NCBI GenBank assembly: GCA_021770655.1
Contig: JAETQO010000018.1
Coordinates: 1,305-65,304 of the forward strand
DNA from: Ruminococcus sp.
Lineage (GTDB): Bacteria; Bacillota; Clostridia; Oscillospirales; Ruminococcaceae
Direction: 5' to 3'
Length of the DNA stretch: 64,000 bases
This document shows positions 30,708 to 58,606 of the stretch, one piece after another. Each line of letters begins with the position of its first letter. Position 1 is the first letter of the stretch. The notes under the pieces are model-generated. The model was given only the letters and a program-made list of their open reading frames with translations, searched no databases and was not told the DNA's origin. Position numbers and translations under genes: made by a program.

Positions 30708-30734
30708 TGCAAAATATTTTTATATAGAGATAAG

Positions 30735-30768
30735 CGGCACAGTGACAGACACTGTGCCGGCTTTTTTG
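30735..30768 (+). terminator. Intrinsic terminator after the HTH-Dfx gene
   Basis: 10-bp stem CGGCACAGTG/CACTGTGCCG, then GCTTTTTTG. Confidence 0.8.
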
Positions 30769-31192: not shown

Positions 31193-31954
31193 GTGAATAA
31201 TTTGAGTGAAATAAATACAACATCGGTCATTGATATTGAAAAGAACCAGACAAATGAAGTTGTTAATATGGAATATGAATCAGTGTGCGTAAAAACAAGT
31301 TTGGTATACCGTGTTGTAAAACGTATATTTGATTTTTTGTTTTCTTTTTGTGCAAGTATAATATTGTTTGTTCCCATGATAATAATAATGTTGATGATAA
31401 TGATAAAAGATAGTGGGACACCTTTTTATATTCAAAAGCGTGTGGGAAAAAACGGTAAAGTGATAGGAGTTTTTAAGTTTCGGAGTATGAAGAAGGGAGC
31501 AGATAATCTGGAAAAAATGCTCAATCCGGAACAGCTTGAAGAGTACAGGCGAGAGTACAAGCTAAAAGATGACCCCAGGTTAATAGGATATAAAAATCCA
31601 GGTGACGGTGATAAATGTTTTGGAGCAAGAATTCGTTCATTGAGTCTTGATGAACTGCCGCAGATATTATTTAATGTTTGTATTTTGGGCAATATGTCAT
31701 TGGTCGGTCCGCGACCATTGCTTGAAGAAGAAATTAAGAAGAATTATACAATTGAAGAGCAGGTTTTATTTAAATCTGTAAAACCTGGGCTTACAGGTTA
31801 TTGGCAAGCATATGCTAGAAACAATGCTACATATGAGAGCGGTGAACGGCAGAAAATGGAAATGTATTATATAAAAAACAAGTCATTATGGCTTGATTTG
31901 AAGATCCTTTTTAAGACAGTCGAAACCGTGTTAAAAAAGAATGGTGCAATGTAA
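31193..31954 (+). CDS. Undecaprenyl-phosphate sugar phosphotransferase (bacterial sugar transferase family), initiating enzyme
   Basis: TM helix followed by PFYIQKRVGKNGKVIGVFKFRSM...SLDELPQILFNV..GNMSLVGPRP, the signature of the WbaP/EpsL C-terminal domain. Confidence 0.85.
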   Translation: MNNLSEINTTSVIDIEKNQTNEVVNMEYESVCVKTSLVYRVVKRIFDFLFSFCASIILFVPMIIIMLMIMIKDSGTPFYIQKRVGKNGKVIGVFKFRSMKKGADNLEKMLNPEQLEEYRREYKLKDDPRLIGYKNPGDGDKCFGARIRSLSLDELPQILFNVCILGNMSLVGPRPLLEEEIKKNYTIEEQVLFKSVKPGLTGYWQAYARNNATYESGERQKMEMYYIKNKSLWLDLKILFKTVETVLKKNGAM

Positions 31955-32004
31955 TATTGTAGATATTTTACTATTAAGATATTATTAACTGGAGGGGTTG
32001 TAAA

Positions 32005-32937
32005 ATGAATCCAGCAATTAGTCTTATAATTCCGACATTAAATGCTGAAAAGTATATTAAGTCATTATTAGACAGACTGTTTTCCCAGACTATTGTTCCA
32101 ACTGAAGTTATTGTTATAGATTCACAATCTGATGACAGAACAGTTGAATTGTGTCGAGAATATGATAGGGTAAAAGTGATTGAGATTCAAAGAGAAGATT
32201 TTGATCATGGAGGAACGAGACATATTGGATTTAAAGAAGCTAAAGGCGATATTTGTCTTGTTATGTCTCAGGATGTACTTCCTAAAGATAATTATTATAT
32301 TCAGAATTTGATTAAAGCTTTTGATACGGATGGAGTGGTTATGGCAACAGGAAGGCAGATTCCATATCCTGATTCACCATTAACGGAAAAAATAACAAGA
32401 GAATTTAATTATCCTGATTTTGATATAATAAAAGATAGGTCTAGTGCTGAGAAGTTAGGAATAAAAACATATTTCTTTTCTGATGTTTGTTCAGCATACA
32501 TAAAAAGTAAATATTTTGCTTTAGGCGGGTATGATACTCCATCTTTAATATGTAATGATATGATTATGGCAGCTAAAGCAATTAATGCCGGATATAAGAC
32601 AGCATATATAAGCAGTGCTCAAGTTTACCATTCACATAAGTATACATTAAAGCAACAATATAAAAGAAATTTTGATGTTTCGGCAGATATGGCTATTAAT
32701 AATAAATATTTTTCTGATGTATCTGATACATCAGAAGGATTAAAAATGGTAAGGTATGTTTTAAAAAGGCTTTTGAGTGGACTTCATTTTATTACTGCTT
32801 TTTATTATTGTATTGAATGTGCTGCAAAATTTTTGGGTAATAGAGCCGGAAAAAAATACGATAGAATGAATAAAAAACAGATACTAAAGAGAACAATGAA
32901 CAAGAGTTATTGGAAAAGAACAAAGTACGTTTCATGA
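32005..32937 (+). CDS. Family 2 glycosyltransferase
   Basis: ISLIIPTLNAEKYI...VIVIDSQSDDRT is a GT-A N-terminus with a DxD-like motif. Confidence 0.8.
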   Translation: MNPAISLIIPTLNAEKYIKSLLDRLFSQTIVPTEVIVIDSQSDDRTVELCREYDRVKVIEIQREDFDHGGTRHIGFKEAKGDICLVMSQDVLPKDNYYIQNLIKAFDTDGVVMATGRQIPYPDSPLTEKITREFNYPDFDIIKDRSSAEKLGIKTYFFSDVCSAYIKSKYFALGGYDTPSLICNDMIMAAKAINAGYKTAYISSAQVYHSHKYTLKQQYKRNFDVSADMAINNKYFSDVSDTSEGLKMVRYVLKRLLSGLHFITAFYYCIECAAKFLGNRAGKKYDRMNKKQILKRTMNKSYWKRTKYVS

Positions 32938-32965
32938 TTCTTATTGAGTTAGGGGCTAATTTTTT

Positions 32966-33793
32966 GTGAGTTATAATGATTTACAGCAAATACATGAAAT
33001 TGATATAAAAATCATAAAGGAATTTGTGCGTATATGTGAACAATATGGATTGGAATATTCAATTATAGACGGAACCATGCTTGGTGCAGTCAGACACAAA
33101 GGCTTTATTCCATGGGACGATGATGTGGATATTGCTATGCCAAGACAGTCTTATAAAAAATTTGTAAAGTTGGCGAGCAAGGAATTGCCAAGTAATATGT
33201 CAATAGAATATTTTGGTGATAAAAATAATTCTGAAAAAGATATTTCATATATTACCAGAATATATTGCAGCGATTTAAAAGTTAAATTGAATATAAATCA
33301 ATTATCTAAGGAACAGGGCGTATGGATAGATATTATGCAACTTGATGGTATGCCTAAAAATAATATTAAATATACTATCCATAAGTATAGATTGTTATTT
33401 CTTAAAGCCGTAACCAAAATGTCTCAGCCGGAAACGATTGGTACACATATAAAAGATAGACCATTGATTGATAGAATTTTTATCTGGGCGGGAAAAAATA
33501 TTGGTATTTTCAAGAAGATAAATACCAAGAAAATGTATTATAAATTAGATACATTGTTATGCAAATACAAAATCAATAAAGAAAATAATTTAGGTATATT
33601 TATTAGTGATTATCGATTTAGGGAAACCGTACCCTATGATTGGTATTTTCCATTAAAAAAATATAAATTTGAAGATATTGAGGTTTGGGGACCTAATAAA
33701 GCAGATGAGATATTAAGGCACTTGTATGGTGATTATAACAAACTCCCGCCATTGGAAGAAAGAAATAAGCACAACATTATTATTGTAAAATAA
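32966..33793 (+). CDS. LicD-family phospho(no)transferase, copy 1
   Basis: IIDGTMLGAVRHKGFIPWDDDVDIAMPR matches the LicD signature. Confidence 0.8.
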   Translation: MSYNDLQQIHEIDIKIIKEFVRICEQYGLEYSIIDGTMLGAVRHKGFIPWDDDVDIAMPRQSYKKFVKLASKELPSNMSIEYFGDKNNSEKDISYITRIYCSDLKVKLNINQLSKEQGVWIDIMQLDGMPKNNIKYTIHKYRLLFLKAVTKMSQPETIGTHIKDRPLIDRIFIWAGKNIGIFKKINTKKMYYKLDTLLCKYKINKENNLGIFISDYRFRETVPYDWYFPLKKYKFEDIEVWGPNKADEILRHLYGDYNKLPPLEERNKHNIIIVK

Positions 33794-33808
33794 CAGGAGT
33801 GTTTGTTG

Positions 33809-34639
33809 ATGTATAATGAATTACAGAAGATTCAGGATATAGAATTAAATATACTTAAAGAGATAGATCGTATTTGTTCTGAATGTGGTATTAAATATTT
33901 TTTATCTAGTGGTACGTTGCTTGGTGCTGTTAGGCATCATGGCTTTATTCCTTGGGACGATGATATAGATATTATGCTGACCAGAAGTGATTATGAGAGA
34001 TTTATCAAAGAGATTCCTAAGAAACTTCCTGAACATTTGAAGTTGTTGCATTTCTCTGTCGGAAATACGGAAGATGATCAAAACTTATTGATTAAAATTA
34101 TAGATACTAGATATCCATGTAAAAGATATTCATATTCGGAAGTGAATACTTGTGTTTGGATTGATGTATTTGCTCTTGATGCGGTTCCTGACAACGTATT
34201 TTTTAGACAAGCTTTTTTTTTCAGATTGAATATAACTACAGCTTTGAGATCATTTAAAAGATGGGAAAATTATGACGAAAATTATAAGTCTAAATCAAAG
34301 TTGAAACAAATTCTTATTACTTTAAATCGCAAATGTAAATTTTCAAAGTTAATAAATATTGATAAGATCTTAAGACGGCAGGATAAAATTTTAAAAGATG
34401 TTGGTAAATATAAGCATAAAAATGTAATGAATTATATGGGCGAATATAAATACAAAGAAACCTTTCCTGAAAAATGGTTGGGAACTGGTAAAAGAGTGCC
34501 GTTTGAAAAATGTAATTTCTTGATTCCTACTAATTCCCATGGTTACTTATCTGTTTTGTATGGAGATTATATGAAGTATCCACCTGTAGAACAACAAGTA
34601 TGTAAGCATGGATTATATTTATATAAGCAAATTAATTAA
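33809..34639 (+). CDS. LicD-family phospho(no)transferase, copy 2
   Basis: LSSGTLLGAVRHHGFIPWDDDIDIML. The ATG at 33809 follows AGGAG by 9 nt. Confidence 0.8.
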   Translation: MYNELQKIQDIELNILKEIDRICSECGIKYFLSSGTLLGAVRHHGFIPWDDDIDIMLTRSDYERFIKEIPKKLPEHLKLLHFSVGNTEDDQNLLIKIIDTRYPCKRYSYSEVNTCVWIDVFALDAVPDNVFFRQAFFFRLNITTALRSFKRWENYDENYKSKSKLKQILITLNRKCKFSKLINIDKILRRQDKILKDVGKYKHKNVMNYMGEYKYKETFPEKWLGTGKRVPFEKCNFLIPTNSHGYLSVLYGDYMKYPPVEQQVCKHGLYLYKQIN

Positions 34640-34704
34640 TTTGCAAATTTAATAAGTTATAAGCATTTTCTTTAGTCATATTTATTAGGAGTATTGTAAT
34701 TAAT

Positions 34705-35946
34705 ATGTATATGTCTTATAAAAAGAAAAATACAGAGTTAATTCAAGTAATTCTGTGTTTTTTTGCTTCTTTATTTTTATTAGAACCAACATGCTTGCCA
34801 TATGTTACAAGTATTGAAAAGTTTTACAATGTTATTTCTATTGCGGTATGTGCAGCAATACTATTATTATATTTATGGTATAATAAAATAAGCCGAATTA
34901 TTCTTTTAATCTCAATATATTATTTTTATCAAATAGCAATGACATGGTATAATTCGGGAAATCTAAAAGGTATATTGTTACTTTCAATTAAATTTATAGC
35001 GATTTGTATGTTTATTGAAATCGGTCTAAATTTAAAAAACAAATTCATAGTAATTAATTCGTTGATGACAGTATTGGAAATATATATTTATATTAATTTA
35101 TTAACTATTTTAATTTATCCTAACGGGATGTACGTTACTGTTTCAACGGATAATGCCAATAATTGGTTCTTAGGCTATAAGAATCAAATGATAAATTTTA
35201 TACTTCCTGCAATTGGGTTGTGCTTATTTAATTATTATTGTAATGATAAATTTGCTTATAAAAAATTAAGAACAGGTTGTATTCTTGTTTGTGGATGCCT
35301 TACAACAATATTGATGTGGTCAGGAGCATCGCTTGTTCTATTGGCAATCTTGATAGTATATGTTCTGTTAGCAAAAAAATTACCTACAAAAATATTTAAT
35401 TTTAGAAACTTTCTGATTGTAAATATTATATTAACAGTATCAATAGTTTTATTCAGAATACAAAATATTTTTTCATTTTTAATAGTGGATATTCTTCATA
35501 AGGATATAACATTGACAGGAAGAATCTATATATGGGATAAAGTTCTTAAATATATATATGAAAGACCGTTGGTTGGTTATGGTGTTGAAAGCTATAGCTA
35601 TCGATGTATAAAAATGAGGAGTATAGCTCCACTGACATACTATGATTATTATGGAGCACTTCATGGACACTGTAGATTTTTAGAAGTGATGTATAGAGGC
35701 GGAATAATTTTGCTGATAATATATTTGCTTATTTTAATATATTCGTGTAGGGATTTAATGCGTCATAAAAATAGTATGCAAGCTAAAATTATTTCAATTA
35801 CCATTTTTGCATATTTGACCGGAATGATAACAGAATGGTATGATTATTCACCAATGTTTTTTGCCTTGTTAGTTCTTGGATATAATATCCAAAGGTTTTT
35901 AAATGAAAGTTCAAAATCCAAGGAAGTGACAGAAAGGGTAAGTTAG
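34705..35946 (+). CDS. Wzy-type polymerase / O-antigen ligase-family membrane protein
   Basis: 413 aa with ten or more hydrophobic segments and a large loop with RIYIWDKVLKYIYERPLVGYGVES. Confidence 0.7.
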   Translation: MYMSYKKKNTELIQVILCFFASLFLLEPTCLPYVTSIEKFYNVISIAVCAAILLLYLWYNKISRIILLISIYYFYQIAMTWYNSGNLKGILLLSIKFIAICMFIEIGLNLKNKFIVINSLMTVLEIYIYINLLTILIYPNGMYVTVSTDNANNWFLGYKNQMINFILPAIGLCLFNYYCNDKFAYKKLRTGCILVCGCLTTILMWSGASLVLLAILIVYVLLAKKLPTKIFNFRNFLIVNIILTVSIVLFRIQNIFSFLIVDILHKDITLTGRIYIWDKVLKYIYERPLVGYGVESYSYRCIKMRSIAPLTYYDYYGALHGHCRFLEVMYRGGIILLIIYLLILIYSCRDLMRHKNSMQAKIISITIFAYLTGMITEWYDYSPMFFALLVLGYNIQRFLNESSKSKEVTERVS

Positions 35947-37347
35947 ATGAACTTTATAAAAAAATTATTGATTTATTTTATAGGTAATGTATTTAATAAA
36001 CTGATTGTATTTTTTCTTTTACCTATTTATACATCAAATCTTTCTCCAAGTGCATATGGAGATGCTGATTTATCACTTACAACAGTTACCATGTTGGTTT
36101 CCCTTCTATTTATGGAGGTTTGGACACCGTTACTAAGATTTTCTTATGACAGCGAAAAAAGAAATGACAAAATAAAAGTATTTAACAATGTAATAATTGT
36201 TGTATGCATATGTATGCCAATTTATTTTGTTGGATGTTTGATAATTGGAAAATGGCAAAATCTCCCTCATTTGACGTGGATGATAGTATATGGATTATCC
36301 ATACTTATTTTGCACATATACCAGTTTGAAGTCAGAGCGGTTGGTAACAGCAAAGACTTTATGCTGTCTGGAATGATTTCTTCTATTGCACAGTTAGTTA
36401 TTAGCTTTATTGCTATTTATTTATTTAAAGCTAATTCTGAGGTAATACTTTTGGCCCCGGCAATCTCAAATATTATCGCTTCAATTTATCTTGAATTTAA
36501 GTATAAATTTATTTCACAGATAAAAAAATCATATTATTCGTTTGAAATGGTCAGCAGTATCATAAAATACGCTTTTCCATTGGCAATAAATGCAGTAGCG
36601 TTTTGGGCAATGACTAATATAAACAGATATTTTTCCAGAGCATATCTTGGATCTGCGGCAAATGGATATATTGCGGTTGCTACAAAATTTATAGCTCTTA
36701 TTAATACGATTGTTCAAATATATTCCTTGGCATGGCAGGAGAGTGCTTATGAACATTGCAATAGTCAGCAGCGATCAAATTATTATAGTAAAATGTTGAC
36801 AATTTATCTTGATGTTATGTCAGTGGGAACATGTATTGCTATAGTAGCAACTAATGTACTTTTCCCGTATATTATATCTGATGTGTCTTATGAAAAAACG
36901 CAATTAATCTTACCAATTTATTATATTTCTGCGTTTGCAAGTGCTATAAGTAATTTTTATGGACATATTTATAATGCATTAAAGAAAACCAATATTTTGC
37001 TTTTCTCGACTATTGGTGGTGCTGTGGTTAATATTGCTCTGCTGTATATCACTATAAATAAATTCGGAATATATTCAATTCCAATTTCGCTTATTGCGGG
37101 ATATAGTGTAAATGTCTTTATGCGTATTGTGAATATAAGTGAACATGTAAAAATCAAGTTAAACTATACGCATATTATTATTAATGCCTTGAGTATTGTA
37201 ATGCCATGTTTAATTGTTTATTTAAATTGTAATTATATTATCAAACTTATTGTTTTTATTCTTAGTTTAGGAAGTCTTATATACTGTTATAGAAAAGATT
37301 TAGGCACATTACTACATAAAATTAAAAAGGGAGTTGTCAGAAAATGA
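35947..37347 (+). CDS. Wzx-type flippase (MOP/PST family)
   Basis: 466 aa polytopic membrane protein. Position and size are typical of Wzx. Confidence 0.7.
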   Translation: MNFIKKLLIYFIGNVFNKLIVFFLLPIYTSNLSPSAYGDADLSLTTVTMLVSLLFMEVWTPLLRFSYDSEKRNDKIKVFNNVIIVVCICMPIYFVGCLIIGKWQNLPHLTWMIVYGLSILILHIYQFEVRAVGNSKDFMLSGMISSIAQLVISFIAIYLFKANSEVILLAPAISNIIASIYLEFKYKFISQIKKSYYSFEMVSSIIKYAFPLAINAVAFWAMTNINRYFSRAYLGSAANGYIAVATKFIALINTIVQIYSLAWQESAYEHCNSQQRSNYYSKMLTIYLDVMSVGTCIAIVATNVLFPYIISDVSYEKTQLILPIYYISAFASAISNFYGHIYNALKKTNILLFSTIGGAVVNIALLYITINKFGIYSIPISLIAGYSVNVFMRIVNISEHVKIKLNYTHIIINALSIVMPCLIVYLNCNYIIKLIVFILSLGSLIYCYRKDLGTLLHKIKKGVVRK

Positions 37348-38456
37348 ACGTAGATAAACTTATGTTGGGCGATTTTTATACCGGTGTTCCAGATTCACAA
37401 TTAAAACCATTATGTAATTGTCTTATGAATACTTATGGTATATCTGCAAAGCATATAATTGCTGCAAATGAGGGTAATTGTACAGCTATTGCTGCTGGTT
37501 ATTATCTGGCGACAGGAAAGGTTCCGGTCGTATATATGCAGAATAGTGGAATAGGAAATATTGTGAATCCGGTAGCATCACTTTTGAATGACAAGGTTTA
37601 TGGAATTCCATGTATTTTTATTGTAGGCTGGAGAGGTGAGCCTGGCGTACATGATGAACCGCAGCATATCTTTCAAGGTGAAATCACTATTAAATTGCTT
37701 GAGGATATTGGAATACATACGTTTATAATAGATAAAGATACCACCGAGGAGCAGATTCAAGAAGAAGTAAAAAGTAATGAGTCTATTTTGGCTAGCGGAA
37801 AAAGTGTAGCATTTGTTGTCAGAAAAGGTGCTATAAGCTATGATGAGAAAATTGAATATAAAAATGATAATACTATGTCTCGCGAAGATATTATCAAGCA
37901 CATAACATCAGTTACTAAAGATGATGTTATAGTTTCTACTACTGGTAAAGCGTCCAGGGAATTGTTTGAAATAAGGGAATCTCAAAATCAGACCCATCAG
38001 TATGATTTTCTCACAGTAGGTTCAATGGGGCATAGTTCATCGATTGCATTGGGTATTGCACTTCAAAAGCCTAATACAAAGGTTTGGTGTATTGACGGAG
38101 ATGGAGCTTTATTAATGCATATGGGAGCAATGGCGGTTATAGGTACTAACCGACCAGGAAATTTGATTCATATAGTTATTAATAACGGCGTTCATGAAAC
38201 TGTTGGAGGAATGCCAACTGTTGCTGGAGATATAGACATTGTAAAAATTGCAGAGGGTTGTGGATATCCTAACGCAGTATCAGTCGATAGTTTTGAAAAA
38301 CTTGATAAAGTATTAATTGAAGCAAAATCACAAAATGAACTTACATTAATCGAAGTAAAGTGTGCGATTGGTTCAAGAGATAATCTTGGCAGACCAACTA
38401 CAACGGCTCACGAAAATAAAGAAAACTTTATGAAGTATTTGGAGGTCCTTGAATAG
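37344..38456 (+). CDS. Phosphonopyruvate decarboxylase (ThDP-dependent; AepY/Fom2-like)
   Basis: DFYTGVPDSQLKPL...NEGNCTAIAAGYYLATGK...GSMGHSSSIALGIA...DGDGALLMHMG are ThDP-binding motifs. About 370 aa. Confidence 0.8.
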   Translation: MNVDKLMLGDFYTGVPDSQLKPLCNCLMNTYGISAKHIIAANEGNCTAIAAGYYLATGKVPVVYMQNSGIGNIVNPVASLLNDKVYGIPCIFIVGWRGEPGVHDEPQHIFQGEITIKLLEDIGIHTFIIDKDTTEEQIQEEVKSNESILASGKSVAFVVRKGAISYDEKIEYKNDNTMSREDIIKHITSVTKDDVIVSTTGKASRELFEIRESQNQTHQYDFLTVGSMGHSSSIALGIALQKPNTKVWCIDGDGALLMHMGAMAVIGTNRPGNLIHIVINNGVHETVGGMPTVAGDIDIVKIAEGCGYPNAVSVDSFEKLDKVLIEAKSQNELTLIEVKCAIGSRDNLGRPTTTAHENKENFMKYLEVLE

Positions 38457-39160
38457 TGAAGGCATTGATTTTAAATTCCGGTTTAGGAAGTCGTATGGGA
38501 GATATAACAAAGAGTGTTCCTAAATGTATGAGTATTGTTAAAGACAATGAGACTATTTTGTCAAATCAAATAAGACTTTTAAAGAAATCAGGAATAGATG
38601 ATATTGTAATTACAACTGGTTCACTTGAGAATGTTTTGAAAAATTATCTTAATGAGACTTTTCCTGGGGAAAGGTTTACGTATGTTTATAACGACAAGTA
38701 TATGGATACGAATTATATTTATTCTATATTTCTTGCAAAAGATATCGTTGACGATGACATTATATTTATGCATGGTGATTTATACTTTACTTCTGAAGTG
38801 TTTGACAAGTTAATTGAAGCTAAGAACAGTTGTGTAGTGATTGATAAGAATGCTGCTTTGCCTGAAAAAGATTTTAAGGCGGTTGTGGTTGACAATAAGG
38901 TGAAGAAAATTGGAATAGAATTTTTTGAAGATGCTTATACATGTCAGCCACTATATAAATTAAAACGAGATGATTGGCATATATGGTTGAATAAAATTTC
39001 CGAATTTTGTAAGAATGGAAAAACAAAAGTATATGCTGAAAATGCTTTAAACGAAATTACCGATAAAATAAATTTATATCCGTTAGATATTCAGTCTATG
39101 TTATGCAATGAAATTGATAATCTCGAGGATTTAAAGATAATAAGAGAAAAAATTAATTAA
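38456..39160 (+). CDS. LicC/MobA-type nucleotidyltransferase (possible phosphonate cytidylyltransferase)
   Basis: MKALILNSGLGSRMGDITKSVPKCM is the N-terminal NTP-binding loop. 234 aa. Confidence 0.65.
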   Translation: MKALILNSGLGSRMGDITKSVPKCMSIVKDNETILSNQIRLLKKSGIDDIVITTGSLENVLKNYLNETFPGERFTYVYNDKYMDTNYIYSIFLAKDIVDDDIIFMHGDLYFTSEVFDKLIEAKNSCVVIDKNAALPEKDFKAVVVDNKVKKIGIEFFEDAYTCQPLYKLKRDDWHIWLNKISEFCKNGKTKVYAENALNEITDKINLYPLDIQSMLCNEIDNLEDLKIIREKIN

Positions 39161-39248
39161 TGAGAATTTATGGAATAAGGTTTTGGATATGTCGGATTGT
39201 AATTTAAACCGATGTGTCAATTACACAAACCTTGAGGAAGGAATAATT

Positions 39249-40544
39249 ATGAAAAAAGTATATTTGTGTATGAGTACAGATGTTATACATGGCGGTCATA
39301 TTAAACTTATCAATAATGCAGCTAAACTTGGTGAAGTAACAGTTGGTGTTTTAACTGATACTGTTGTAGCTAGCTATAAGCGTTTTCCTATGCTTTCATA
39401 TGAGGAAAGAGCAAATATTATATCAAATATAAAGGGCGTTGCAAATGTTGTTCCGCAAACTGATTTGAGTTACAAAGAAAATTTACTTAAATACAAACCA
39501 GATTATCTTGTTCATGGTGATGATTGGATAAACGGATTACAAAAACCAATACGAGAGGAAGCTATTCAAGTATTATCTACATATGGTGGCGAATTGAAGG
39601 AATTTCCTTATTCAGGTGAAAAAGAATATGACATGTTTGAAGCAGGCGTAAGAAAGCAGTTATCTATTCCTGATCTTAGAAGAGGAAGATTGAAAAAGCT
39701 TTTAGGTATGAAGTCGACAGTTACTGCGATTGAGGCACATAATGGACTTACGGGCCTTATAGCAGAAAACACTCAGGTTGTTGAAAACGGTAAGGCATAT
39801 CAGTTTGATGCTATGTGGGTATCAAGTCTTTGTGATTCCACAGCGAAGGGCAAGCCTGATATTGAACTTGTTGATATGTCTAGCAGAATGCGTACGATTG
39901 ATGAGATAATGGAAGTGACAACAAAACCAATTATTTTTGATGGAGATACCGGCGGATTGATTGAGCATTTTGTATATAATATCAAGACATTTGAACGTAT
40001 GGGTATTTCTGCCATAATAATTGAAGATAAAGTTGGACTGAAAAAGAATTCACTGTTTGGTAATGAAGTTGTTCAGACTCAGGATACAATTGAACATTTT
40101 TGCGAAAAAATAAAGGCAGGGAAAAAAGCTTTAAAGACAAAAGATTTTATGCTTATAGCAAGGATTGAAAGTCTTATTTTAGAGCAAGGAATGGATGACG
40201 CTCTTAACAGAGCCTTCGCATATGTTGAAGCAGGTGCAGATGGTATAATGATTCATTCCAGAAAAAGTTCTCCTGATGAGATTTTTGAATTCTGTGATAA
40301 ATTCCGTGCTAAAGATAACATTACACCGCTTGTTGTTGTACCGACGTCGTTTAATACTGTTACGGAAGATGAGTTCGCAAGAAGAAATATTAATATTGTG
40401 ATTTATGCAAATCAACTTACGAGAAGTGCCTTTCCAGCTATGAAGGAAACGGCAGAAATTATACTAAAAAATCACAGAGCTAAAGAAGCTGATGATGTAT
40501 GTATGTCATTTAAAGATATAATTCGTTTAATTCCGGAGGAGTAA
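39249..40544 (+). CDS. Cytidylyltransferase-PEP mutase fusion (Fom1-like architecture)
   Basis: N-terminal HxGH module (YLCMSTDVIHGGHIKLINNA). The C-terminal ~290 aa is an ICL/PEP-mutase-type barrel (AHNGLTGLIAE...WVSSLCDS...IIEDKVGLKKNS...ARIESLI). The ATG at 39249 follows GAGGAAGG. Confidence 0.75.
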   Translation: MKKVYLCMSTDVIHGGHIKLINNAAKLGEVTVGVLTDTVVASYKRFPMLSYEERANIISNIKGVANVVPQTDLSYKENLLKYKPDYLVHGDDWINGLQKPIREEAIQVLSTYGGELKEFPYSGEKEYDMFEAGVRKQLSIPDLRRGRLKKLLGMKSTVTAIEAHNGLTGLIAENTQVVENGKAYQFDAMWVSSLCDSTAKGKPDIELVDMSSRMRTIDEIMEVTTKPIIFDGDTGGLIEHFVYNIKTFERMGISAIIIEDKVGLKKNSLFGNEVVQTQDTIEHFCEKIKAGKKALKTKDFMLIARIESLILEQGMDDALNRAFAYVEAGADGIMIHSRKSSPDEIFEFCDKFRAKDNITPLVVVPTSFNTVTEDEFARRNINIVIYANQLTRSAFPAMKETAEIILKNHRAKEADDVCMSFKDIIRLIPEE

Positions 40545-41660
40545 ATGAAAGAACCTAAAATATATGAAGATGGAAATTGTAGTGAAATACTTTCCGAAGT
40601 ATTAAATGAAGTATCCGCAAAAAATATTTTACTTGTTTGCAGCCACTCTTTTGATTCGTTAATTATAAAAAAAGATATTGAGCTTTTAGCTGGTAAGTAT
40701 AGCTTTTTTAGATTCGGAGATTTTGCCCCCAATCCTGTATATGAATCTGTCCAAAAAGGTGTAAAGTTTTTTAAAGAAAGTAATTGTGACACGGTTCTTG
40801 CCATTGGCGGGGGGAGCGCTATAGATGTTGCAAAATGTATAAAGCTATTTTCTCATATGGAAGATAACTCTAATTACCTTGAACATAATTTTAAGGATAA
40901 TGGAGTTCCTATTGTTTGTATACCTACTACGGCTGGCACTGGTAGTGAAGCTACAAGGTATGCTGTGATTTATTATAATGGTGAAAAGCAATCAATTACA
41001 CACGAAAGTATAATACCTGATTACGCTTTGTTGATTCCTGATTTACTGGACACACTTCCGCTATATCAAAAAAAGGCAACAATGCTTGACGCACTATGTC
41101 ATTCAATTGAGTCATTTTGGTCTGTTAATTCCACTGATGAAAGTAAAAAATACTCATCACAAGCAATAAGAATGATAATTGATAATAAGAATTCTTATTT
41201 ATCAAACAATATTGACGGAAATAAGAAAATGTTAATTGCCGCAAATTTGGCTGGAAAGGCAATAAATATAACACAAACCACGGCCGGACATGCAATGTGT
41301 TATAAAATTACATCATTGTATAACATTGCTCATGGTCATGCAGCCGGATGTTGCGTTCCCTATTTATGGGAATTTATGCTGGATAATATGGGTTTTGTTA
41401 CTGATTATCGTGGGAAAGAATATTTATTAAATGTTTTTTATGAAATATCGGAATGTCTAGGGTGTGATGGTCCAACGAATGCAGTTGCTTTTTTGAAAAA
41501 AATGCTTTTTGAATTATCACTTGAAATTCCAAAAATGAAAAATGATAAGGAACTTGAACTGCTTATAAAGTCAGTGAATCCTACAAGACTAAAAAATAAT
41601 CCCATTGCATTGAATAAGGAACAAATTAAGCAAATATATACCAATATATTTGGCTTGTAA
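40545..41660 (+). CDS. Group III iron-containing alcohol dehydrogenase (candidate phosphonoacetaldehyde reductase, FomC/PhpC-like)
   Basis: VLAIGGGSAIDVAKCIK...TTAGTGSEATRYAV...H..H metal motifs. Directly abuts the mutase gene. Confidence 0.7.
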   Translation: MKEPKIYEDGNCSEILSEVLNEVSAKNILLVCSHSFDSLIIKKDIELLAGKYSFFRFGDFAPNPVYESVQKGVKFFKESNCDTVLAIGGGSAIDVAKCIKLFSHMEDNSNYLEHNFKDNGVPIVCIPTTAGTGSEATRYAVIYYNGEKQSITHESIIPDYALLIPDLLDTLPLYQKKATMLDALCHSIESFWSVNSTDESKKYSSQAIRMIIDNKNSYLSNNIDGNKKMLIAANLAGKAINITQTTAGHAMCYKITSLYNIAHGHAAGCCVPYLWEFMLDNMGFVTDYRGKEYLLNVFYEISECLGCDGPTNAVAFLKKMLFELSLEIPKMKNDKELELLIKSVNPTRLKNNPIALNKEQIKQIYTNIFGL

Positions 41661-41672
41661 ATTGGAGGAATT

Positions 41673-42659
41673 ATGGACAAGTTTTTTGTTATCAGCCATA
41701 CAGAAGGCAAGAGTGCATATTTTCAATTTGTTTGGGGAAATATTGATAGCTACGGTGCATCATATATAAAAAATCAAGCTGAGATAAAAAATAAATTTTT
41801 AAAATTCCTTTTTAGAATTCACAACTCCAGAGATATTAATAGATATTTAAATTTGCCTTTTAAAAATATTTGGAAGAAATTCTATTCATTGAAACCGGAG
41901 ATGTTGTCTCCATCAGACAGAAATTTTCTTATATTTGACAATACAATTAAATATTCTCATTCTTATCTTAAATATTTGAAAGAGCATTATAATTGCGTTA
42001 TAGTTAATATTCTTCAGGATACTTTGAAAGTATATAAATGTGGTAGAAATAAGAAAGAACTTGATAGATATATTAATCAAGCCTGTGTGGATAAGTTTTT
42101 TTCTTTTGACTTTAAAGACTGCAAAGATTTTAATTTAGAATATTATATGCTGTATTCATATTTTCCTTCTAATTTGACAAAAGGAAAGGCCGGTAAGGTA
42201 TGTTATGTAGGAAGCAATAAAAGTAAAAATCGTTTAAACCTTTTTCATAGTGTATTTAAAAAGATTCATCAAGAAGTGGAAACAGATTTTAATATGGTCG
42301 GAGTATCAGAAAGTAATCAGATATTTCCACGTGAAATAACATACAATCATACTTTAAAATATAATGAGGTTATAGAAAAGATTCAAAAAAGTGATTGTTT
42401 ATTAGATATAGTTAATGATAATCAAACAGGTATAACGTTAAGATGCTGTGAAGCAATTTGTTATAATAAAAAGCTGCTAACGAATAATCCTTTTATAAAG
42501 GAATTGTCATTCTATAATCCAGAGTATATAAAGATTTTTAATAATGCTAATGATATTGATATAGAATGGCTTAAGTCGGACATTGATGTTGATTATCATT
42601 ATAATGGTGATTTTCATCCTACAAAGTTGTTTGAAATTCTTTCTCAAACGTTTAAATAA
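41673..42659 (+). CDS. Hypothetical protein, possible non-canonical glycosyl/phosphotransferase
   Basis: 328 aa with no family I can name. The C-terminal half (VCYVGSNKSKNR...GITLRCCEAICYNKKLLTNN) looks like a Rossmann-type half domain. Confidence 0.4.
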   Translation: MDKFFVISHTEGKSAYFQFVWGNIDSYGASYIKNQAEIKNKFLKFLFRIHNSRDINRYLNLPFKNIWKKFYSLKPEMLSPSDRNFLIFDNTIKYSHSYLKYLKEHYNCVIVNILQDTLKVYKCGRNKKELDRYINQACVDKFFSFDFKDCKDFNLEYYMLYSYFPSNLTKGKAGKVCYVGSNKSKNRLNLFHSVFKKIHQEVETDFNMVGVSESNQIFPREITYNHTLKYNEVIEKIQKSDCLLDIVNDNQTGITLRCCEAICYNKKLLTNNPFIKELSFYNPEYIKIFNNANDIDIEWLKSDIDVDYHYNGDFHPTKLFEILSQTFK

Positions 42660-42678
42660 TGTAAAGGTAGATGTTATT

Positions 42679-44013
42679 ATGAACATAGAGAATATACTGA
42701 AAAAAATTGACAGATTAAATAACTCAATAAAAGTAGGCATATCAAAGATACCATTTAATGAATGTAATTTATGGATGTATAATGAAGAACTCGGTGAGAT
42801 TTGTAATCAGACAAGAAGTTTTTTTCAAATTAAGGGTTTGATTAAGAATAACAAGAATGAGAATATTATAGAGCAACCCATTATCATTCAGAATGAAATT
42901 GGTTATCTCGGTATAATCCGTAAAAAGATCAATGGTGAATTTCATTATCTTATGCAGTACAAGATTGAACCGGGAAATATAAATAAAATTCAGATTTCCC
43001 CTACTATTCAAGCAACAAAGAGTAACTTCACGCAGAAACACGGTGGAAAGAGACCAGCATATTTGGACTATTTTGTCAATGCATATAAGTATAAAATAAT
43101 TGTAGATCAAATCCAGTCAGAACAGTCTTCGAGATTCTTGGGAAAGCGAAATAGAAACATAATTATTGAGCTTGATGAAAACGAATATGTTGAAGTGCTT
43201 CCTAGTCATGAATGGATGACATTAAATCAAATCAAGGCACTTATGACTTTTGACAATTTGGTTAATATGGATACACGTACAGTATTATCCTGTTTACCGT
43301 TATCGATAATAACTTATTCTAGCAGTAATCTTAATAATTTTGAGTCGCAATTCAATGATAAAGCATTGTTTAGATCTATTACAGCGGGATGTGGAAAAAA
43401 TCTCTTGCCCGATATTTATCAGTATATAAATAATTATAAAATGTTTGATGAAAGTGAAACAAAACTGATACCGTTATTTAATTTGACAAGTTGGCATATG
43501 CAAAACAACGAATTTGTATGTGATAATCCGTATAGTTTTAAAATTGTTTTTTGTAATATTGAAATTGAGGGAAGAGAGGTCAAACAATGGTGTCAGCCTT
43601 TGTTTGAGGCAACTGGAATTGCAACTTTTGGACTTTTTACTTGTATTGATAATGGTGTGAGAATGTTTTTGATAAGATGTTGTCCCGAAATTGGCTGTTT
43701 TGACAAAATTGAAATTGGTCCTAGTGTTCAGCGTGAATACACTTCATTGGAAGAAAAGAATTCAGTAGATTTGCTGTTTGATAAAAAGGTTAAAGAAAAG
43801 TCTGGAATTATGTTTGATACGCTTCTTTCTGAAGAGGGCGGACGCTTTTACCAGGAGCAGAATCGTAATGTAATTATTGAAATTGAAAAAAATGAAATTC
43901 AATTGCCAGACGGATATTTTTGGTGTGATTATAAAACGCTTAATATTCTTGTTCAAGTTAATAATACGCTTAATATTCAACTTAGAAATCTTTTATCAGT
44001 ATTGGAGTTTTAA
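42679..44013 (+). CDS. NDP-hexose 2,3-dehydratase
   Basis: QPIIIQNEIGYLGII...YKIEPGNINKIQISPTIQATKSNFTQKHGG...DQIQSEQSSRFLGKRNRNIII, duplicated in the second half (EEGGRFYQEQNRNVIIE). The ATG at 42679 follows the upstream stop at 42659. Confidence 0.85.
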   Translation: MNIENILKKIDRLNNSIKVGISKIPFNECNLWMYNEELGEICNQTRSFFQIKGLIKNNKNENIIEQPIIIQNEIGYLGIIRKKINGEFHYLMQYKIEPGNINKIQISPTIQATKSNFTQKHGGKRPAYLDYFVNAYKYKIIVDQIQSEQSSRFLGKRNRNIIIELDENEYVEVLPSHEWMTLNQIKALMTFDNLVNMDTRTVLSCLPLSIITYSSSNLNNFESQFNDKALFRSITAGCGKNLLPDIYQYINNYKMFDESETKLIPLFNLTSWHMQNNEFVCDNPYSFKIVFCNIEIEGREVKQWCQPLFEATGIATFGLFTCIDNGVRMFLIRCCPEIGCFDKIEIGPSVQREYTSLEEKNSVDLLFDKKVKEKSGIMFDTLLSEEGGRFYQEQNRNVIIEIEKNEIQLPDGYFWCDYKTLNILVQVNNTLNIQLRNLLSVLEF

Positions 44014-44016
44014 TAT

Positions 44017-45030
44017 ATGGATAAAATTAGGATAGGAATCATATGTCCCTCGGAGATTGCATTCAGACGTTTTATGCCAGCAATTACGAAATGCACGGAT
44101 TTTGATTATGTTGGAGTTGCTGTACCTCAAGCGGATGAATGGGGAGGTGCTTTTTCAAATGAAACAAGGGAAATCGAATTGTCAAAGGCTAAAGATTTTG
44201 TTGCAAGTTATGGTGGTAAGATCTTTGCAAGCTATAATGAGTTAATAGAAAGCAATGAAATTGATGCTGTTTATCTTCCGTTGCCACCTTCACTTCATTA
44301 TAAATGGGGTAGAAAAGTTCTTGAAAACGGGAAACATCTTTTTGTTGAAAAGCCATCAACAACTTGCTATAAAGATACAGAGGAACTTGTGAAATTTGCT
44401 TTGGGGAAAGGACTTGCATTGCACGAGAATTATATGTTCCGGTTCCATAGTCAGATTGAGTACATAAAGGATTTTATTGAGAGTGGAAAAATAGGAGATA
44501 TTAGGTTATACAAAATTGCATTTGGATTTCCTAAAAGAGCGTCCAATGATTTTAGATATAACAAAATGTTGGGCGGGGGAGCCTTGCTTGATGCTGGTGG
44601 TTATACTTTCAGATTGGCATCTATTCTTTTAGGTGATACAGTAAAAGTTGTAACATCAAAATTAAATTATACAGATGAGTTTGATGTAGATTTGTTTGGA
44701 AGTGCTACTCTTGAAAATGCAGAGGGTCTTATCGCTCAGGTTTCGTTTGGTATGGATAATGCTTACAAATGTGAACTTGAGGTGTGGGGCAGTAAAGGTA
44801 CATTATTTACAAACCGTATATTGACTGCACCGGTAGGATTTGAGCCTATAATTGAATATAAAGATGGTAATAATCCTATTGAAAAAATAAGGTTGTCTGA
44901 AGATGATACATTTATGAAATCTATTATGTATTTTGAAAAATGCATATATGATCAGAAAATAAGAAACAAAAGTTATAATTCCATTTTAAAGCAAGCTGAA
45001 CTTGTTGAAAAGGTGAAAGGATGCAATTAG
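44017..45030 (+). CDS. Gfo/Idh/MocA oxidoreductase (candidate NDP-hexose 3-ketoreductase)
   Basis: IRIGIICPSEIAFRRFMPAI is a Rossmann N-terminus, followed by LFVEKP. Context immediately after the 2,3-dehydratase. Confidence 0.7.
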   Translation: MDKIRIGIICPSEIAFRRFMPAITKCTDFDYVGVAVPQADEWGGAFSNETREIELSKAKDFVASYGGKIFASYNELIESNEIDAVYLPLPPSLHYKWGRKVLENGKHLFVEKPSTTCYKDTEELVKFALGKGLALHENYMFRFHSQIEYIKDFIESGKIGDIRLYKIAFGFPKRASNDFRYNKMLGGGALLDAGGYTFRLASILLGDTVKVVTSKLNYTDEFDVDLFGSATLENAEGLIAQVSFGMDNAYKCELEVWGSKGTLFTNRILTAPVGFEPIIEYKDGNNPIEKIRLSEDDTFMKSIMYFEKCIYDQKIRNKSYNSILKQAELVEKVKGCN

Positions 45031-45031
45031 C

Positions 45032-45580
45032 ATGAAAGTTACATCATTAGAAATTCCTGAAGTAAAAGTAATAGAGCCGGATGTGTTCTCAGATTATAGA
45101 GGTTATTATATGGAATCTTATTCTCAGAGATCCTTGGCGAAATTAGGAATCAATGACATATTTGTTCAAGATAATCATTTTTATTCAATAAAAAAAGGAA
45201 CTATTAGAGGAATTCATTTTCAAAATAATCCTTATGCACAGTCAAAACTTTTAAGATGTACAAGAGGTGTTATCCTTGATGTTGCAGTAGATCTTCGAAG
45301 GAATTCGCCTACCTATAAAAAATATGTAATGGTAGAACTTTCGGCTGAAAATAAAAAGCAGATTTACATTCCTAAGGGATTTGGACACTGCGCAATGTCA
45401 TTGACAGATGACGTAGAAGGTCAATATAAGGTTGATGAGTTTTACTACCCTAAATATGATCGTGCAATAGCTTTTAATGATCCTGAGATAGGAATTGACT
45501 GGGGTACTGATCAATTTATAGTATCTGAAAAGGATAAAAAAGCTCCGTTGTTGAAAGACAGTGATGTTAATTTTTTATGA
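45032..45580 (+). CDS. dTDP-4-keto-6-deoxyhexose 3,5-epimerase (RmlC family)
   Basis: 182 aa. FSDYRGYYMESY...IRGIHFQ...KLLRCTRGVILDVAVDLR...IPKGFGHC. Confidence 0.88.
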   Translation: MKVTSLEIPEVKVIEPDVFSDYRGYYMESYSQRSLAKLGINDIFVQDNHFYSIKKGTIRGIHFQNNPYAQSKLLRCTRGVILDVAVDLRRNSPTYKKYVMVELSAENKKQIYIPKGFGHCAMSLTDDVEGQYKVDEFYYPKYDRAIAFNDPEIGIDWGTDQFIVSEKDKKAPLLKDSDVNFL

Positions 45581-45589
45581 GGTGAGTGT

Positions 45590-46492
45590 ATGCAGGTAGC
45601 GGTTGTAACGGGCGCTGGCGGCTTTATCGGGGGCGCTTTGACTCAAAAGCTTTTGTCAGATGGAATGAAGGTTTATGGTGTGGATATAAGTGCAGATTCT
45701 CTATTGCGTTTTAATTCGTATGATAATTTTGTTCCCGTGTGTATTAATCTTGAAAAAGAGAGCATATCAAGTTATTTAGATGAAAAATGTGATGTATTTT
45801 ATTATCTTGCTTGGGGTGGACAACTTGGAGGAAAGGATTTATCTGATGAAAATTTACAGGTAAAAAATATAATGACTGCTGTGAGAACTTGCCGTAGTAT
45901 GGTAAATTCATGTAACAAGTATATCTTTTGCAGTTCAAGTTATGAGTATATGAGAAGCTGTGAAAATGATGAGATTTATGTAAATATATATGGTATTGCC
46001 AAACGTTCAGCTGCTGAGATGTGTGCAGCTATCGCATTGCAGAATGGAATGAACTTTAATAAAGCTATTTTGACCAATACCTATGGTGTAGGAGATCGAT
46101 CTAAAAAAGCTGTTAATACAATAATTAATGCTATGAATAATAATATTTCGCTTACTTTGGTTGAGGGAAATAATAAAAATGATTGGGCTTATATTGATGA
46201 TACAGTTGATGGTTTGATCAATATTTTTAAAAAAGGTAAAAATCACAAAACTTATTATATAGGACATAGGGAGATATCTACCTTTAAAGAGAAAATATTG
46301 GCAATGCGTAGTTTACTGTGTCCGGAGAGAGAATTGATATTTGGAGGATATGTAGAAAATACATATGTCGATTATTCCTGTATTGATTTGGACGCGTTAT
46401 ATGATGATACGGGATTTGAATGTAAAACGGAATTTAATGAAAGTATAATAAAAACGTCTGAATGGTTAAAAAATAAAAAAGATAAGGTGTAA
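45590..46492 (+). CDS. NAD(P)-dependent SDR epimerase/reductase (candidate 4-ketoreductase)
   Basis: VAVVTGAGGFIGGAL glycine motif and YGIAK catalytic YxxxK. Confidence 0.7.
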   Translation: MQVAVVTGAGGFIGGALTQKLLSDGMKVYGVDISADSLLRFNSYDNFVPVCINLEKESISSYLDEKCDVFYYLAWGGQLGGKDLSDENLQVKNIMTAVRTCRSMVNSCNKYIFCSSSYEYMRSCENDEIYVNIYGIAKRSAAEMCAAIALQNGMNFNKAILTNTYGVGDRSKKAVNTIINAMNNNISLTLVEGNNKNDWAYIDDTVDGLINIFKKGKNHKTYYIGHREISTFKEKILAMRSLLCPERELIFGGYVENTYVDYSCIDLDALYDDTGFECKTEFNESIIKTSEWLKNKKDKV

Positions 46493-46493
46493 A

Positions 46494-47666: not shown

Positions 47667-47667
47667 T

Positions 47668-48540: not shown

Positions 48541-48544
48541 TAAA

Positions 48545-58605: not shown

Positions 58606-58606
58606 T

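Follow-up and report, generated by a model that had tools for sequence, protein, structure and literature searches.

The Wzx/Wzy heteropolysaccharide operon of a Ruminococcus-like gut or rumen bacterium probably includes a module for phosphonyl tailoring, of the type that leads to 2-hydroxyethylphosphonate (the HEP branch). The window analysed is a 64-kb stretch of DNA, and an ORF check found the four predicted reading frames of the module in it on the plus strand between 37344 and 41660. These four phosphonate genes are translationally coupled and lie within a 19-gene low-GC glycan operon that also holds two LicD genes (Table 1); the junctions, in the order Wzx/Ppd/NTa/CyT-PepM/Fe-ADH, are −4, −1, +88, and 0 nt. 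The testable parts of the original prediction all held: PEP mutase, phosphonopyruvate decarboxylase (Ppd), a Fom1-type fusion, and the absence of both an aminoethylphosphonate (AEP) transaminase (AEPT) and late fosfomycin genes. (The host RpoA is 95% identical to that of Ruminococcus sp.)

The best-supported pathway, each step of which is assigned by homology, runs from PEP to CMP-HEP and onward to a glycan. The PEP mutase domain would convert PEP to phosphonopyruvate; Ppd would decarboxylate this to phosphonoacetaldehyde, drawing the unfavourable equilibrium forward; and the Fe-ADH would reduce the aldehyde to HEP. CMP from CTP would then be joined to HEP, a step for which the Fom1-type fused domain has precedent and for which the free LicC-fold enzyme, NTa, also seems suited, HEP rather than an amine being its likely substrate. 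One or both LicD proteins would take the hydroxyethylphosphonyl group of CMP-HEP and attach it, at the cytoplasmic face, to a hydroxyl on a sugar in the undecaprenyl-PP-linked repeat unit. Finally, Wzx would flip the decorated unit and Wzy would polymerise it.

Table 1. Genes of the glycan operon and the regulator gene upstream, in window coordinates
Feature	Coordinates	Strand	Evidence
HTH_3 (XRE-type) regulator gene	30120..30707	+	PF01381, 58 bits; directly 5' of glycan operon
Bac_transf, initiating phosphoglycosyl transferase	31193..31954	+	PF02397, 169.8 bits
GT2 glycosyltransferase	32005..32937	+	PF00535, 89.6 bits
LicD1, predicted phosphonyl (CMP-HEP) transferase	32966..33793	+	PF04991, 168 bits
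LicD2, diverged paralogue of LicD1	33803..34639	+	PF04991, 151.5 bits
Wzy-type polymerase	34705..35946	+	PF04932 (Wzy_C), 44.7 bits vs cut-off 31.7
Wzx-type flippase	35947..37347	+	PF01943 (Polysacc_synt), 41.1 bits vs cut-off 28.2
Ppd/Fom2/AepY-type phosphonopyruvate decarboxylase, 370 aa	37344..38456	+	TIGR03297; TPP_enzyme_N/C domains
NTa, LicC-fold DUF6564-type nucleotidyltransferase, predicted HEP-adapted cytidylyltransferase, 234 aa	38456..39160	+	NTP_transf_3, NTP_transferase, DUF6564
Fom1-type bifunctional CyTase (residues 1-~125) + PEP mutase (~150-431), 431 aa	39249..40544	+	CTP_transf_like + PEP_mutase
PhpC/FomC-like Fe-ADH, predicted phosphonoacetaldehyde reductase, 371 aa	40545..41660	+	PF00465 (Fe-ADH) + PF25137 (ADH_Fe_C)
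WaaS/CpsH-family glycosyltransferase	41673..42659	+	NF053598, 125 bits vs cut-off 60
Sugar-nucleotide genes: NDP-hexose 2,3-dehydratase, GFO-type ketoreductase, RmlC-like epimerase, SDR reductase, Glf, RmlA, RmlB	42679..49564	+	spacing 1-19 nt

As predicted, the barrel of the fusion protein is a true PEP mutase and neither an isocitrate lyase nor a methylisocitrate lyase. It scores 407 bits against TIGR02320 (cut-off 319.55), and residues 259-268 read EDKVGLKKNS; the EDKxxxxxNS motif separates PEP mutases (Ppm) from the rest of the isocitrate-lyase superfamily (PMC6697681). Alignment to the mussel enzyme (1m1b) pairs D58, D85, D87, E114, K120, N122, S123, R159, and H190 with D204, D231, D233, E259, K265, N267, S268, R305, and H336, although mussel G47 is Ser here. 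The sister families were rejected on score: phosphonopyruvate hydrolase (PPH), 153.6 (below 374); methylisocitrate lyase (PrpB), 96.7 (below 354); and carboxyPEP (CPEP) mutase, 48.6 (below 420). Two findings favour the start at ATG 39249 over TTG 39183 and ATG 39189: the GGAAGG ribosome-binding site 8 nt before it, and the length of 431 aa that most homologues share.

The amino-terminal module proved to be the expected HxGH cytidylyltransferase (PF01467, 53.4 bits; HGGH at residues 14-17), and of the solved structures that of the Fom1 CyTase, 5x3d, comes closest to it (E 6e-41; identity ~54%). Twenty-five columns separate AEP-type from HEP-type loci; Fom1 has the HEP-type residue at 18 of these and the AEP-type residue at one. 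Within the same polypeptide, branch-specific columns make up 27 of 125 in the CyTase domain versus 13 of 281 in the PepM domain. The fused CyTase domain thus looks adapted to HEP, and CTP:HEP activity is predicted. The ThDP enzyme is likewise Ppd, passing the NCBI equivalog TIGR03297 (476.4 bits vs cut-off 312.5) and containing both the FYTGVPDSQLKPL motif and the ThDP motif GDG-X25-NN (at residue 252). Sulfopyruvate decarboxylase was rejected as its identity, with ComE at 125 (below 221.5) and ComD at 74 (below 148).

NTa has been correctly described as LicC-type: it contains an NTP_transf_3 domain, and among its solved relatives LicC 1jyk comes first (E 1.5e-13), followed by PntC 6pd1 (E 2e-7). 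The LicC fold and the metal ligands D108, E219, and D221 are retained, but the amine-contact position, E104 in Tde-PntC and D105 in LicC, is H106. This residue is His in all 30 copies of NTa from the loci and in each of 120 database homologues, versus Glu in 27/27 AEPT-linked copies of NTb, a second LicC-like family. Two Trp residues of the LicC aromatic box, W136 and W191, are replaced by F140 and A194. An AEP-type PntC identity was therefore rejected for want of the acidic amine contact, and a LicC identity for loss of the box that holds the quaternary amine. NTa appears to be PntC-like in its working but not an AEP-type PntC.

Comparison with 80 related loci, whose modules are related and horizontally shared so that counts are not independent events, ties each free nucleotidyltransferase to one branch: NTa accompanies Fe-ADH in 19 loci, NTb accompanies AEPT in 22, and neither is found with the other's partner. 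Fe-ADH and AEPT occur together in none of the 80. NTa forms a single polypeptide with CyT-PepM in 12 loci and with Fe-ADH in one (L012), which suggests that its substrate is made by the module itself. Moreover, both nucleotidyltransferases look HEP-adapted, given the His at the amine-contact site of NTa and the CyTase branch residues that match Fom1. The second nucleotidyltransferase had been called unexplained, but the enzyme is recurrent, sometimes fused to the module, and marked by HEP-branch-specific residues.

One reason for having two, possible though unlikely, would be a division of labour: the fused Fom1-type domain would make all of the CMP-HEP, and NTa would take a different branch-specific substrate or nucleotide, yielding two donors for two LicD proteins. 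In Streptomyces, the Fom1 domain by itself is enough for CMP-HEP formation (PMC6697681, PMC9088020); NTa is missing from a HEP-type locus of Bacteroidota; and the window pairs two nucleotidyltransferases with two LicD proteins that are just 33% identical (pairwise BLASTP). However, the fusions of NTa to Fe-ADH and to CyT-PepM argue for the module's product as its substrate, an abundant gut locus combines a triple fusion with a single LicD, and nothing encoded in the operon would make another small phosphoryl or phosphonyl substrate.

Assignment to the HEP branch depends also on what is missing. Searches with 27 AEP transaminases from related loci found no match in the 64 kb, and no radical-SAM, cupin, or epoxidase domain was found in the operon or in the flanking ORFs scanned, in keeping with the predicted lack of AEPT and of Fom3/Fom4-like genes. 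It is improbable that the pathway ends in AEP or some other phosphonate, formed in trans by a transaminase or tailoring enzyme (HEPD/MpnS type, or a methyltransferase) encoded elsewhere. AEP is the commonest surface phosphonate (56% of neighbourhoods; PMC8942020), and the sequence examined is 64 kb of a genome. Against this stand the lack of AEPT in the window, the mutual exclusion of Fe-ADH and AEPT across the 80 loci, and the HEP-branch residues of both nucleotidyltransferases, without the amine-binding Glu. Furthermore, every ORF of the operon is assigned, and none encodes a cupin, a radical-SAM enzyme, or an aminotransferase.

The branch-point enzyme has two Fe-ADH domains (PF00465 and PF25137), and homologues ~55% identical carry the NCBI name phosphonoacetaldehyde reductase. 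In PhpC of P. fungorum, the metal ligands are D191, H195, H260, and H274, and K157, T256, Y264, and R349 are reported to bind HEP (PMC13576164). The window protein has D182, H186, H249, and H263 together with K148, T245, Y253, and R348, which match by spacing only and which 28-29 of 29 cluster-linked homologues share; a generic Fe-ADH from Thermotoga also has equivalents of K148 and Y253. The single phosphonate-linked NCBIfam model for Fe-ADH, TIGR03405 (Phn_Fe-ADH / PsrA), gives 142.4 bits, under its cut-off of 423.7, so membership in this mainly degradative subgroup was rejected.

It is also improbable that the Fe-ADH acts on a sugar-nucleotide or some other aldehyde, the module then ending at phosphonoacetaldehyde or feeding another branch. 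Generic Fe-ADH models score about as well as TIGR03405, and one homologue, 54% identical, lies in an unrelated genomic context, away from phosphonate genes. Yet the gene begins directly after the PepM stop codon; of three independently sampled homologues, two lie between CyT-PepM and Ppd; and adjacency to PepM and Ppd, seen in at least 23 related loci, is kept in Clostridia, Bacillales, Bacteroidota, Spirochaetota, and Methanobrevibacter though gene order changes. The NTa-Fe-ADH fusion and the NCBI naming also favour reduction of phosphonoacetaldehyde to HEP.

Transfer of HEP to the glycan would fall to the LicD proteins, the two paralogues foreseen in the same operon, both of which exceed the PF04991 cut-off of 22.6. 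Their versions of the (I/V)PWDxDxD motif, WDDDVD and WDDDID, line up with the catalytic segment of FKRP. The genes are placed between those for a glycosyltransferase and Wzy, and we infer the donor and acceptor of the enzymes solely from this position. That NTa and the LicD pair are instead a Lic-type phosphocholine system of the usual kind, with the phosphonate genes serving a separate product, is very hard to credit: among solved structures NTa is closest to 1jyk, and LicD is the classical phosphocholine transferase family, but NTa lacks both the aromatic box and the D105 acid, neither the operon nor the other ORFs scanned showed a choline kinase or transporter (LicA/LicB), and NTa is physically joined to PepM or Fe-ADH in other genomes.

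The operon itself contains the three components of a Wzx/Wzy-dependent pathway (Bac_transf, Polysacc_synt, and Wzy_C), all above gathering scores. Galactofuranose and a dTDP-derived 2,6-dideoxyhexose are probably further constituents of the glycan. The HTH_3 gene is flanked by a sigma-70-like promoter (12/12; 30057-30085) and a hairpin terminator (30735-30759), and its position suggests control of the glycan operon; a promoter-like site at 30863-30891 is listed with the Bac_transf gene. The entire 16-gene arrangement is present also in a Clostridia MAG (L001), and its core in Clostridium leptum DSM 753 (L031).

Four known systems resemble this HEP-tailoring module in part. It shares three chemistries and the Fom1 architecture with Fom1/Fom2/FomC of Streptomyces fosfomycin biosynthesis, along with the CyTase identity and 18 of 25 branch-specific residues noted above. 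A fosfomycin cluster was nonetheless rejected, because the operon and the flanking ORFs scanned lack Fom3 (a B12 radical-SAM methyltransferase), the Fom4 epoxidase, and FomD, as well as FomA and FomB. The module lies instead among the LicD, Wzx, and Wzy genes of a glycan operon, and includes a LicC-fold nucleotidyltransferase that the fom cluster does not have. CMP-HEP, a transient intermediate in fosfomycin synthesis, would here be the transfer donor.

The Pnt pathway (PntC: Treponema denticola Tde1415; Atopobium rimae Ari1348) offers a Ppm often fused to a nucleotidyltransferase, Ppd, a LicC-fold cytidylyltransferase, and LicD-like transferases, all encoded at surface-glycan loci; some of the clusters described have a free nucleotidyltransferase besides a fused one, and the NTa fusions resemble the characterised PntC-AEPT fusion Tde1415 (PMC6697681). 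The branch-point enzyme differs, being AEP transaminase in Pnt and Fe-ADH in the window, and the free nucleotidyltransferase, with His for PntC Glu104, belongs to a separate family (NTa, not NTb). The Lic system of Streptococcus pneumoniae (LicC/LicD1/LicD2) likewise combines a LicC-fold nucleotidyltransferase with two LicD paralogues and decorates the repeat unit before export. There the substrate is phosphocholine, whereas a phosphonate made de novo is predicted here; LicA and LicB are missing from the ORFs scanned, and the choline-binding aromatic box from NTa.

The predicted product class, HEP esterified to extracellular polysaccharide, is that of the Stackebrandtia nassauensis and Glycomyces phosphonoglycans and the PhpC-type gene-cluster families (PMC8942020). 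Those bacteria belong to another phylum, and gene order and transferase set differ from the LicD pair and Wzx/Wzy of this Clostridia operon. The published rule (Ppm, Ppd, and Fe-ADH, without AEPT) places the cluster among the HEP-type neighbourhoods, 8.5% of ppm loci (PMC8942020, Li and Horsman). An exopolysaccharide bearing HEP has already been isolated; we know of no HEP-glycan shown from any Clostridia.

The idea that antibiotic chemistry was reused for surface decoration has the direction reversed: Ppm serves mostly in surface tailoring, its fusions to a cytidylyltransferase are frequent (23.6% of Ppm enzymes), and HEP-type clusters have already been inventoried (PMC6697681, PMC8942020). 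The module is thus not novel in kind; its arrangement is catalogued and common in gut anaerobes. What the 80-locus comparison adds is the split of NTa and NTb by branch, the NTa fusions, the change from Glu to His at the amine contact, and the branch-specific residues of the CyTase domain.

The four genes of the original prediction are present at 37344-41660, and on bioinformatic evidence they probably yield a surface glycan decorated with 2-hydroxyethylphosphonate (HEP). They lie within a run of 19 genes on one strand (about 30.1-49.6 kb of the window), with inter-gene distances of −4 to +88 nt. The remaining glycan machinery includes both anticipated LicD genes (LicD1 and LicD2, 33% identical); the Wzx flippase and Wzy polymerase; an initiating phosphoglycosyl transferase; and two glycosyltransferases. 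Further sugar-nucleotide genes in the operon, Glf (galactofuranose) apart, are the predicted gene set for dTDP-2,6-dideoxyhexose, including an NDP-hexose 2,3-dehydratase (PF03559, 382 bits). Such sugars are typical of actinomycete antibiotics and seldom found in surface polysaccharides.

The operon region (30000-50000) forms a low-GC island (26-37% GC, versus 44-49% upstream and about 40% downstream), as would fit a serotype-like locus passed on by horizontal exchange. The window also contains a ribosomal-protein/SecY/RpoA region, whose RpoA (95% identical to that of Ruminococcus sp.) identifies the host, by sequence, as a Ruminococcus-like Clostridium. A GH25 lysozyme gene lies between this region and the island, and a probable integrated mobile element lies downstream of the operon (see table).

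Features of the window and of related loci (L numbers) from other genomes
Feature	Location	Strand	Remarks
Phosphonopyruvate decarboxylase (Ppd), ThDP enzyme	37344-38456	+	TIGR03297, 476 bits (cut-off 312.5); GDG-X25-NN motif
NTa, LicC-fold nucleotidyltransferase	38456-39160	+	234 aa; PF12804, PF00483, DUF6564
CyT-PepM	39249-40544	+	PF01467 HxGH domain (CyTase) fused to PEP mutase domain
Fe-ADH, predicted phosphonoacetaldehyde reductase	40545-41660	+	abuts pepM
Sugar-nucleotide genes	42679-49564		same operon; RmlA, RmlB, NDP-hexose 2,3-dehydratase, GFO/IDH/MocA ketoreductase, RmlC-like epimerase, SDR reductase, Glf
GH25 lysozyme/muramidase	26188-27075	−	overlaps a + strand ORF without family match
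Probable integrated mobile element	56037-60815		large serine recombinase (CcrB-like, 103 bits), several family-less ORFs, DUF6551 protein
NTa-Fe-ADH fusion	L012:11025-12863		one 612-aa ORF
Radical-SAM fusion to a second PF01467 cytidylyltransferase domain	L021:11284-12720; L028:11303-12733		478 aa; between CyT-PepM and Ppd
Orphan Fe-ADH	L086/L087 6001-7161		neighbors Cu/Zn superoxide dismutase, DUF218, GGDEF
Fe-ADH-TagF-MptE-like fusions	L002:15360-19715; L011:15320-19669; L007:130-4299; L003:135-4196		about 1400 aa

The entry enzymes are well assigned. The ThDP enzyme passes the phosphonopyruvate decarboxylase equivalog model, and both subunit models for sulfopyruvate decarboxylase fall below their cut-offs. 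The CyT-PepM barrel is, by profile and motif, a genuine PEP mutase: it scores 407 bits against TIGR02320 (cut-off 319.55); it contains the Ppm-specific motif EDKxxxxxNS, as EDKVGLKKNS; and it retains equivalents of the mussel PEP mutase catalytic residues. An isocitrate lyase reading is rejected by this motif and by a methylisocitrate lyase score far under its cut-off, and phosphonopyruvate hydrolase is rejected by a similarly low score; the carboxyPEP mutase model also falls far short. Thus neither a lyase-type barrel nor a sulfopyruvate-type ThDP enzyme, the sequence-level alternatives named with the original prediction, was found. The N-terminal domain matches the crystal structure of the Fom1 cytidylyltransferase domain (E 6e-41). 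The length of most homologues (431 aa) and a GGAAGG ribosome-binding site 8 nt 5′ of ATG 39249 favor this start codon. An exact-sequence database look-up with the 431-aa protein gave no match, because gene callers took an upstream ATG and called 451 aa.

An amine branch, through an aminoethylphosphonate (AEP) transaminase (AEPT) hidden inside the window, is rejected. A tblastn search of the whole window with 27 class-V aminotransferases that adjoin CyT-PepM in related loci (one representative checked against Pfam) found none, as had been expected from the sequence. The predicted lack of Fom3/Fom4-like tailoring also holds for the operon and the flanks scanned, which contain no radical-SAM, cupin, or epoxidase ORFs.

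The Fe-ADH is the weakest link among the enzyme assignments. No curated model singles it out: its scores against the NCBIfam models for ErcA, lactaldehyde reductase, and PsrA lie at about 140-150 bits, well short of each cut-off. FomC, PhpC, and DhpG have no solved structure, and the nearest PDB matches are generic Fe-ADHs. Support for a phosphonoacetaldehyde reductase comes from its adjacency to pepM; from the NCBI name of homologues about 55% identical ("phosphonoacetaldehyde reductase"); and from conserved residues. Equivalents of the metal ligands, and of the Lys/Thr/Tyr/Arg set recently proposed as holding HEP in PhpC (PMC13576164), are kept in 28-29 of 29 cluster-linked homologues. Homologue contexts also favor the assignment: of three homologues sampled independently, two are encoded between CyT-PepM and Ppd. 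The remaining one stands alone (the orphan in the table; 54% identity to the window's Fe-ADH), so some members of this subfamily are not tied to phosphonate synthesis.

Why should an operon with a fused cytidylyltransferase encode a second nucleotidyltransferase? NTa is not accidental to the operon, because it is also found fused in frame to its neighbors: to CyT-PepM at 12 loci, as three-domain proteins of about 670 aa (an architecture shared by a protein that recurs in over 150 metagenome blocks), and to Fe-ADH at L012, although this last example comes from a MAG and may be an assembly artefact. The L012 protein is the HEP-branch counterpart of the characterized PntC-AEPT fusion Tde1415 (PMC6697681); locus L069 likewise encodes a fusion of AEPT to NTb, the second LicC-like family.

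The solved structures that best match NTa are LicC (1jyk, E 1.5e-13) and the phosphonate enzyme PntC (6pd1, E 2e-7); a literature search found no report on DUF6564. In Tde-PntC, Glu104 contacts the AEP amine, and Asp105 is the LicC equivalent (PMC6697681). The amine-contact position is Glu in all 27 NTb copies, versus His in all 30 NTa copies and in 120/120 of their nearest database homologues (His106 in the window). Moreover, the Trp positions of the LicC aromatic box are Phe140 and Ala194 in NTa. A Lic-type phosphocholine role is rejected on these residues. Since the metal ligands are retained, NTa resembles a functional cytidylyltransferase whose specificity has shifted to a substrate lacking an amine, HEP being the simplest candidate.

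The fused domain carries a similar signature. Columns that separate AEP-type from HEP-type loci make up 27/125 positions in CyTase versus 13/281 in PepM, within the same chain, and Fom1, which is experimentally HEP-specific, matches the HEP type at 18 of 25 branch columns and the AEP type at one. Both nucleotidyltransferases thus seem suited to the HEP branch. A Bacteroidota locus of HEP type has the fused CyTase domain only and no NTa. These patterns give testable residue-level predictions for HEP versus AEP activation: His106 versus Glu in NTa, and K44/D92/Q98 versus N/N/E in the fused domain.

A single scan of species-representative genomes identified 80 related loci, with CyT-PepM 60-84% identical to that of the window. 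Most are from gut and rumen Clostridia; others are from Bacillales, Bacteroidota, Fibrobacteria, Gastranaerophilales, Spirochaetota, and Methanobrevibacter. The entire operon recurs, gene for gene, in a Clostridia MAG (L001), and Clostridium leptum DSM 753 (L031) repeats the order LicD-LicD-Wzy-Wzx-Ppd-NTase-CyT-PepM-FeADH. Besides this strain, cultured carriers include Domibacillus robiginosus DSM 25058 (L015) and Butyrivibrio sp. AE3009. When loci were typed by clustering the ORFs that neighbor CyT-PepM, 22 had AEPT with NTb, 19 had Fe-ADH with NTa, and none of the 80 mixed the two sets; these counts represent non-independent events, given that the loci are related to one another and can move horizontally. 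The association nevertheless persists despite altered gene order and phylum.

Four Methanobrevibacter MAG loci (L040, L042, L045, and L051) carry NTa-CyT-PepM-Ppd-FeADH; their PepM shares 63-64% identity with that of the window, which suggests that the module has moved between domains of life in gut and rumen settings. Four Lachnospiraceae loci of about 21 kb each (L004, L005, L008, and L010) encode the most similar CyT-PepM (77-78% identity), with no Ppd within 10 kb of it. Their neighbors include NeuB; a CTP_transf_3-HAD fusion; a choline-binding-repeat protein; TagF-GT4 fusions; a phosphomannose-isomerase-like cupin; and MBOAT. The radical-SAM fusion at L021 and L028 recalls Fom3, which acts on CMP-HEP; no B12-binding domain is reported in it.

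Together, these results suggest a pathway in which PepM would convert PEP to phosphonopyruvate; Ppd would form phosphonoacetaldehyde, pulling the unfavorable mutase equilibrium; and Fe-ADH would reduce this to HEP. Homology for these steps is strong. The Fom1-type domain, NTa, or both would then form CMP-HEP, as Fom1 precedent and residue patterns suggest. By gene position and Lic/Pnt analogy, LicD1 and/or LicD2 may move the hydroxyethylphosphonyl group onto a lipid-linked repeat unit, to be flipped by Wzx and polymerized by Wzy.

A more elaborate proposal, rather unlikely at present, is that NTa represents an uncharacterized HEP-specific cytidylyltransferase class, and that the nucleotidyltransferase and LicD pairs perform non-redundant chemistry. 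The pairs may serve two distinct attachment sites. Alternatively, HEP units could be added to one another, as the molecule has a free hydroxyl as well as its phosphonate. Lachnospiraceae proteins that adjoin CyT-PepM combine a PhpC-like Fe-ADH, a TagF-type CDP-glycerol glycerophosphotransferase, and an MptE-like domain, which suggests that teichoic-acid-type polymerases may use CMP-HEP. Through those loci, gut Firmicutes could conceivably carry a poly(hydroxyethylphosphonate) that resembles teichoic acid.

The predicted HEP-decorated glycan follows the phosphonyl-tailoring logic of Rice et al. (PMC6697681), who showed clusters with fused and free nucleotidyltransferases and noted LicD-like transferases; in their study, fusion to PF01467 occurs in 23.6% of Ppm enzymes and fusion to both nucleotidyltransferase types in 2.9%. 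The rule of Li and Horsman (PMC8942020) places the window cluster in the PhpC/HEP branch (8.5% of ppm neighborhoods), in which only two of ten inventoried gene-cluster families have an isolated product: HEP on Stackebrandtia exopolysaccharide, and a Nitrosopumilus methylphosphonate adduct. The original framing of reused antibiotic chemistry is accordingly unsurprising: this chemistry mostly serves to decorate surfaces, and Fom1 seems to belong to a widespread HEP-type clade. The window is a clean, compact example of a system type already known and inventoried, so its value is incremental. Two features for which no description was found, the division into NTa and NTb with a His/Glu switch and the fused-domain signature, are modest, testable additions.

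A literature search found no experimental report of HEP-glycans in gut Firmicutes. Pathways for HEP catabolism were recently described (PMC13576164). Lachnospiraceae, Clostridium leptum, and even Methanobrevibacter carry this module too. If the prediction is true, a phosphatase-resistant, anionic C-P group would be exposed on the surface polysaccharide of a Ruminococcus lineage common in rumen and gut and of many further gut anaerobes; such a group could influence phage and antibody recognition as well as phosphorus and phosphonate cycling in the gut.
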